From the NCBI RefSeq assembly GCF_003334355.1, contig NZ_QOWP01000001.1: DNA of 64,000 nucleotides, one strand, 5' to 3'. The notes beneath the pieces were generated by a model, which did not search any database, was not told the origin of the DNA, and was given only the letters and a program-made list of their open reading frames with translations. This stretch comes from Escherichia coli. GTDB lineage: Bacteria; Pseudomonadota; Gammaproteobacteria; Enterobacterales; Enterobacteriaceae. The translations under genes were made by a program, and so were the position numbers. The stretch's first letter is position 1, and each line of letters starts with the position of its first letter. Positions 13,627 through 13,872 of this stretch are shown here, piece after piece.

Positions 13627-13800
13627 TGTAATATCCTTTCTCTTTCTTAGACAGTACCTTACGGCACTGGTGTTAATACCCGATCTTCTGCGCATCCTCG
13701 CGACTAATGACAACCCTAACCCAGCTCTATGTGGGTAAAGCCTCTCATTAGCCGCGCGAACCTCTGCAACGGAAGATCATTCATAGCAACAATACATTAG
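13627..13800 (-). promoter_or_regulatory. pnp 5' leader (RNase III-processed autoregulatory region)
   Basis: Non-coding leader between rpsO terminator and the pnp UUG start; assignment from established knowledge, exact hairpin not mapped here. Confidence 0.45.
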
Positions 13801-13815
13801 TTTCCAGTGAATTGC
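13640..13815 (+). ncRNA. sraG: Possible SraG sRNA antisense to the pnp leader (approximate)
   Basis: Recalled location of SraG in the rpsO-pnp intergenic region on the opposite strand; boundaries not determinable from sequence. Confidence 0.3.
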
Positions 13816-13828
13816 TGCCGTCAGCTTG

Positions 13829-13853
13829 AAAAAAGGGGCCACTCAGGCCCCCT
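13829..13853 (-). terminator. rpsO intrinsic terminator
   Basis: Hairpin ggggcc-actca-ggcccc followed on the minus strand by U-run, directly after the rpsO stop. Confidence 0.75.
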
Positions 13854-13872
13854 TTTCTGAAACTCGCAAGAA

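Follow-up and report, generated by a model that had tools for sequence, protein, structure and literature searches.

The 246-bp gap at positions 13627-13872 of the window (the whole 64,000-nucleotide stretch of E. coli DNA analysed here) is almost certainly the E. coli rpsO-pnp intergenic region, a densely overlapped module for the post-transcriptional control of PNPase. The same DNA carries a terminator used by two transcripts that converge on it, the leader hairpin of an mRNA, and an antisense RNA. The rpsO-pnp locus has been under dissection since the 1980s, and the feature is already known and annotated in K-12; it therefore matters little as a discovery, and its value is that of a positive control, a dense overlapping module that a preliminary description had named correctly. 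Identity, coordinates, structures, family matches, and conservation were determined here, while what is said below of transcripts, cleavages, and regulatory effects rests on published work with the identical sequence of K-12; for the P2 start, the RNase III cuts, the CsrA sites, and the RNase E sites, the exact nucleotides are those that we infer by combining the two.

The ORF list places nlpI, pnp, rpsO, truB, rbfA, and infB on the minus strand around the gap, and the ORF at 13873..14142 on that strand is ribosomal protein S15 by translation. The gap is delimited as follows:

13624..13626, minus strand: pnp UUG start codon (TTG in the DNA), as in the K-12 annotation, just outside the gap
13873..13875, minus strand: rpsO (S15) stop codon TAA, the upper edge of the gap, matching the K-12 rpsO annotation
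NC_000913.3 3311169..3311414: K-12 counterpart of the gap, containing sraG (b4449)

These edges leave exactly 246 bp between the two genes, the length and coordinates that had been claimed beforehand. The alignment to the K-12 rpsO-pnp region that the preliminary description called for showed 100% identity to E. coli K-12 MG1655 across the gap (246/246 bases), and in the K-12 annotation pnp, sraG, and rpsO have the same order, strands, and spacing as in the window. Over a larger interval, 5001 window bases aligned without gaps to NC_000913.3 3308000-3313000 (window position = K-12 coordinate − 3297542), with 6 mismatches, every one of them in the pnp coding sequence. All six are single-base differences, at 11836-11908 and at 13315, five of them within 73 bp; because of these pnp differences, the strain must be an E. 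coli other than MG1655 itself. Every one of the 5426 complete E. coli genomes contained a match to a 501-base query centred on the gap, and in 5401 of them the identity was 99% or higher. The query matched 5429 places in total, one of them on a plasmid record, and one genome carried two places. On the far side of the S15 gene, a match to the Rfam model of the ribosomal S15 leader (RF00114), through which S15 is known to autoregulate its translation, covers 14086-14200 on the minus strand with 117.6 bits, overlapping the rpsO start and extending just upstream of it, and a P1-like promoter, TTGCGA-17-TAGAAT, lies at 14279-14251.

Near the rpsO end of the gap is a terminator, which the preliminary description had seen at about 13829-13853 and which was located there by terminator scan and folding:

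13829..13858, both strands: bidirectional intrinsic terminator, T1 of rpsO on the minus strand and the sraG terminator on the plus strand
13857..13872, minus strand: rpsO 3' UTR upstream of the terminator, containing GUUUC at 13863-13859

The stem, GGGGCC/GGCCCC at 13835-13851, has 6 G-C pairs and a 5-nt loop. The plus strand has AAAAAA (13829-13834) ahead of the stem and CTTTT (13852-13856) after it, while the rpsO-sense RNA reads GGGGGCC-UGAGU-GGCCCC-UUUUUU, with six T residues after the stem on the minus strand. Since A and T runs flank the stem on either side, the terminator works in both directions, each strand yielding a GC-rich stem-loop followed by a U run. Folded alone, it has a predicted energy of -19.5 kcal/mol in the rpsO sense and -14.1 kcal/mol on the plus strand, in the SraG sense. 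The earlier assignment to rpsO is thus refined: the terminator is common to rpsO and sraG, and Fontaine et al. 2016, working on K-12, describe rpsO T1 and the sraG terminator as one bidirectional terminator (PMC5029454, Fig. 1 legend). RNase E sites have been reported on either side of the rpsO terminator (PMC4681348, PMC5029454), and RNA-seq detected paired RNase III sites together with two RNase E sites flanking the terminator (PMC4681348). The RNase E site "M2", which starts rpsO mRNA decay, probably falls in the stretch at 13857-13872; the UUUC at 13862-13859 within this stretch is invariant in the 42 species aligned below (T39 T40 T41 C42 in the E. coli row). Terminator-flanking RNase E sites and the pnp P2 promoter, both at approximate positions, are to be added to what the gap had been said to hold.

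The antisense RNA SraG had been placed in the gap beforehand, and the K-12 annotation and an Rfam model both put it there on the plus strand; neither places it elsewhere. The features on this strand are:

13641..13856, plus strand: sraG, 216-nt antisense sRNA (K-12 RefSeq ncRNA b4449, 3311183..3311398)
13629..13634, plus strand: putative SraG -10 hexamer TAATAT, at -12 to -7 relative to the annotated 5' end at 13641

The Rfam SraG model (RF00082) matched 13685-13856 on the plus strand over its full length (model positions 1-177), with 164.3 bits and an E value of 1.4e-31, well above the gathering cut-off of 50 bits. The matched RNA is flanked by rpsO and pnp, both of which are on the other strand, and overlaps the pnp 5' leader; it ends in a Rho-independent terminator, the plus-strand stem at 13835-13851 followed by CTTTT, with the annotated 3' end at 13856. 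The match agrees within 2 nt with an older 174-nt annotation of SraG, a form now replaced by the 216-nt RNA (13641-13856) of the current mapping. Northern blotting and circular RT-PCR with and without polyphosphatase identified this 216-nt RNA in K-12 as a primary transcript with a 5' triphosphate, whose start lies 42 nt upstream of the 5' end annotated earlier and which runs as far as the terminator (PMC5029454). A mutation in the -10 element abolishes the 216-nt SraG, and pnp mRNA and PNPase rise; in vitro, SraG blocks the 30S toe-print (PMC5029454). Transcription of SraG from its own promoter has thus been demonstrated for the identical K-12 sequence (PMC5029454), and in the window the same primary transcript would be expected. 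Its complementarity to the pnp leader runs from 3-4 nt upstream of the Shine-Dalgarno (SD) sequence through the leader hairpin (hairpin R, below), so the 5' end at 13641 agrees with the published description of pairing that comes close to the SD without overlapping it (PMC5029454). The hexamer TAATAT at 13629-13634 is flanked, on the other strand, by the SD and the start codon of pnp, and from its position and conservation is the probable SraG -10 element. Upstream of it, where a -35 element would be, lies pnp coding sequence, outside the gap.

One other reading of the plus strand was discarded. A 58-aa ORF at 13562-13738 starts upstream of the SraG 5' end, within sequence antisense to pnp, and was rejected as a chance ORF, because it runs through the apical part of the hairpin, whose length varies among species by numbers that are not multiples of three.

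On the mRNA strand, the dominant structure of the gap is the pnp leader hairpin, referred to here as hairpin R:

13682..13778, minus strand: hairpin R, RNase III substrate of the pnp leader (97 nt, minimum free energy -46.1 kcal/mol)
13743..13746 (about ±3 nt), minus strand: RIII1, estimated position of the upstream RNase III cut, 5' arm, upper stem
13705..13708 (about ±3 nt), minus strand: RIII2, estimated position of the downstream RNase III cut, 3' arm, upper stem
13652..13669, minus strand: small second hairpin predicted in E. coli, between hairpin R and the ribosome-binding site

Hairpin R is long, stable, and imperfect, and lies in the 5' UTR downstream of the rpsO terminator, as the E. 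coli-type pnp leader hairpin does; the 235-nt pnp-sense stretch that contains it folds with z = -3.9 relative to dinucleotide shuffles. An RNase III site for pnp autoregulation had likewise been named for the gap, and this held up: the hairpin is present, and the sequence is identical to that mapped experimentally in K-12 (PMC5029454). RNase III cuts there at +39 and +77 from the P2 start (PMC5029454), and two further observations agree with the position of RIII1. The fragment from P1 to RIII1 is 500 nt (PMC5029454) and, counted from the P1-like promoter at 14279-14251, would end near 13745. Gordon et al. 2017 reported a 3,782-fold ratio of reads in the rnc mutant over the wild type at K-12 position 3311286, labelled "psrO" and affecting pnp (PMC5371410 Table 1); this position corresponds to 13744 in the window. 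At the position of the second hairpin, the alignment reads in other species as a hairpin-capable stretch of different sequence.

The P2 promoter, from which the monocistronic pnp mRNA starts, was placed by combining published measurements with the sequence:

13781..13784 (about ±3 nt), minus strand: approximate start of the monocistronic pnp mRNA at P2, calculated from PMC5029454
13789..13796, minus strand: likely P2 -10 element, TGTATTGT, that is, TG followed by TATTGT, assigned by position and conservation

The pnp RNA used in vitro extends from +1 to +234 and ends at nucleotide 79 of the ORF (PMC5029454), which gives a 155-nt leader and therefore a P2 start at 13781. With a 2-nt stagger imposed on the +39 and +77 cuts in the predicted hairpin, the start falls at 13784 instead; the published cut positions and leader length thus disagree by about 3 nt under this requirement, which is why ranges are given here for P2 and for both cuts. 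The putative -10 element lies 5-8 nt upstream of the start so placed, and TGTATTGT is nearly invariant in 42 species (T105 G106 A108 T109 T113), which makes 13789-13796 the likely P2 -10 element. A generic sigma-70 promoter scan of the region called neither P2 nor the SraG promoter.

The leader ends in the pnp translation start, whose UUG codon the preliminary description had rightly read from the sequence:

13634..13638, minus strand: pnp SD sequence AAGGA, read from the sequence
13695..13697, minus strand: candidate upstream CsrA site, the GGA in GAGGAUG, in the 3' arm of hairpin R

The TTG at 13626-13624 (T275 T276 G277) is invariant in 42/42 aligned Enterobacterales, and the toe-print maps to the pnp UUG (PMC5029454). 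It is preceded by the SD, in which A263 and G265 are invariant in the 42 species. Two CsrA sites are described in the processed pnp leader, one of them over the SD (Park 2015, as cited in PMC5029454). The GGA at 13695-13697 is a candidate for the other site, which would be exposed only once RNase III and PNPase have processed the leader; within the GAGGAUG of the 3' arm, G202, A203, and G204 are invariant, and the remaining positions are at least 70% conserved.

Carried over from the identical K-12 sequence, these elements suggest the following course of events. Most rpsO transcripts would stop at T1, with its stem at 13835-13851 (PMC5029454 and works cited there), and RNase E would cut beside the terminator hairpin, with which rpsO mRNA decay would begin. 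The pnp leader would be carried both by rpsO read-through transcripts and by P2 transcripts starting at about 13781-13784. This leader would fold into hairpin R (13778-13682), and its upper stem would be cut by RNase III in each arm, near 13745 and 13707, whereupon PNPase would clear away the short 5' piece that remains base-paired with the processed leader. RNase E would then have access to the exposed leader, and CsrA would bind it at GGA motifs, of which one lies over the SD; through this exposure, pnp mRNA would be destabilised and translation from the weak UUG start repressed, which is the proposed autoregulation. From the other strand, the 216-nt SraG would be transcribed from a promoter that overlaps the ribosome-binding region of pnp; it would end at the same terminator, and it is perfectly complementary to the pnp leader. 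The first 42 nt of SraG would pair next to the SD and thereby block 30S binding, and the pairing would create an extra RNase III site, so that PNPase would be fine-tuned downward, modestly.

Conservation was assessed on a comparative sample assembled by a pattern scan for a conserved N-terminal coding motif of pnp, with one genome per species, which yielded at least 120 loci. Among the matches listed, homologues of the E. coli spacer came from Enterobacterales loci only, and at loci outside this order nothing matched beyond short stretches where the rpsO coding sequence ends. Forty-two Enterobacterales spacers, taken from among the matches listed, were aligned. The pnp TTG, the terminator stem, the UUUC of the rpsO 3' UTR, and most of the hairpin R core (CGCGCGGCUAAUGA paired with UCAUUAGUCGCGAG) are invariant in all 42; in the apical part of hairpin R, sequence and length vary and pairing is kept. 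RNAalifold applied to the 42 spacers recovered both the terminator and hairpin R. Across the two structures, 96.9% of the alignment cells are paired, compared with 41-51% when the 3' partners are slid by 1-3 columns; the terminator pairs taken separately are 99.7% paired. Fourteen pairs have changed on both sides, that is, in a compensatory manner, and none of 500 shuffles reached any of the observed measures. The structure of the pnp leader is thus conserved with compensatory changes across these 42 Enterobacterales. Within hairpin R (13682-13778; alignment columns 236-309), neither arm of the lower and middle stem varies among the 42 species, and two conserved G.U pairs belong to this stretch. 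Such constancy exceeds what pairing needs and suggests sequence-specific recognition, by RNase III, PNPase, or CsrA, or a constraint acting on both strands.

These data bear on one alternative, that the gap is an ordinary spacer in which the hairpins arose by chance and the terminator alone is functional. The sole point in its favour is that hairpins are common in intergenic regions generally. The conserved core of hairpin R and the covariation of its apical part in 42 species, the fold z score of -3.9, the Rfam SraG match at E 1.4e-31, and the experimental mapping of the identical sequence (PMC5029454, PMC5371410, PMC4681348) all run against it; conservation and the Rfam match refute it, and we regard its probability as negligible. 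A control module for PNPase is the reading that we retain, and no observation speaks against it.

The Rfam SraG model scored above its cut-off, antisense to pnp, at all 11 of the 11 Enterobacterales loci tested (83-160 bits) and at none of 4 loci from other gammaproteobacteria (Aeromonas, Pseudidiomarina, Zobellella, and Glaciecola), three of which carried the S15 leader.

The two strands share the conservation of hairpin R unequally. Over the same columns, hairpin R is 96.2% paired in the pnp sense (180 G.U cells) and 82.4% paired in the SraG sense (8 G.U cells), and in E. coli it folds with -46.1 kcal/mol in the pnp sense versus -33.4 kcal/mol in the SraG sense. The two G.U pairs noted above are retained in 37/42 and 40/42 species, and their equivalents on the SraG strand would be A-C mismatches. 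This pairing asymmetry and the keeping of the G.U pairs indicate that the structure is maintained for the mRNA strand, the SraG fold being largely a weaker mirror image. Not all of the 42 species have a -10 hexamer of the E. coli type, TAATAT: Yersinia and Photorhabdus keep it, for instance, and Enterobacter cloacae and Pantoea stewartii lack it; scoring of -10-like hexamers was weak and is uninformative across species, because the spacer between SD and start codon is AT-rich everywhere.

It could accordingly be argued that the conserved sequence and structure serve the pnp leader only, that the SraG signal mirrors hairpin R and the terminator, and that the antisense RNA is a minor, perhaps lineage-restricted by-product. 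The asymmetries in pairing, folding energy, and G.U pairs fit this view, as does the partial distribution of TAATAT, and in K-12 SraG is poorly expressed, its overexpression does not shut off pnp, and no phenotype has been found (PMC5029454). Against it stand the 5'-triphosphate primary transcript made from the identical K-12 sequence, the -10 mutant that loses SraG and raises pnp mRNA and PNPase, and the toe-print of the 30S subunit that SraG blocks in vitro (PMC5029454). We consider this alternative rather unlikely. As SraG exists in E. coli and has a measurable, modest effect there, the disagreement concerns its importance and spread, not its existence, and for the window we keep to a module in which the leader and the antisense RNA both have a part.

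For the family as a whole, a related proposal can be put forward tentatively, as a possibility to which we would give well under even weight: it may be essentially the pnp mRNA strand that drives conservation of the SraG family, through hairpin R, its G.U pairs, and the rpsO terminator, and a functional 216-nt SraG with an SD-proximal 5' end may be a narrower, lineage-specific addition where TAATAT is kept. If so, an Rfam SraG match found beyond the Escherichia-like group would be no sign of an antisense regulator. The strand asymmetry is the one mildly useful addition of this analysis to the known locus, and it cautions against taking an Rfam SraG match in other genera as proof of such a regulator.

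In other Enterobacterales, such as Yersinia, Photorhabdus, and Serratia, SraG (RF00082, alias PsrO) has the same antisense position, terminator, and invariant hairpin core. What varies among these loci is the apical loop, the sequence of the second hairpin, the length of the spacers, and the region of the SraG -10 element. The SraG of Y. pseudotuberculosis acts on another operon, with no effect on pnp reported in the account cited in PMC5029454. In Streptomyces coelicolor, RNase III likewise cuts a leader hairpin upstream of pnp in the rpsO-pnp locus and controls the level of PNPase (as cited in PMC4681348); that hairpin differs in sequence, and no homologue of SraG is reported from that species. 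Listeria monocytogenes also has an sRNA between rpsO and pnpA, RliD (PMC5029454, discussion), but RliD has no notable sequence similarity to SraG, and no effect of RliD on pnp has been shown (PMC5029454).

Several loci in the comparative sample differ from E. coli in size. At three loci, about 100-110 extra bases separate the rpsO terminator from the conserved TGTATTGT:

L024:1669-2075: Enterobacter sp. BIGb0383
L043:3088-3488: Kluyvera genomosp. 1
L075:5232-5631: a Pseudocitrobacter MAG

The stretches of about 100 bp in these three genera gave no match to an approximate ERIC core sequence; in two of the three genera, the extra bases make a perfect TATAAT adjoining TGTATTGT. In Erwinia mallotivora (L119:4036-4391), about 55 additional bases lie between the rpsO stop codon and the terminator, and in Dickeya oryzae (L122:1441-1794, minus strand), the apical loop of the pnp leader hairpin is larger by about 55 nt.
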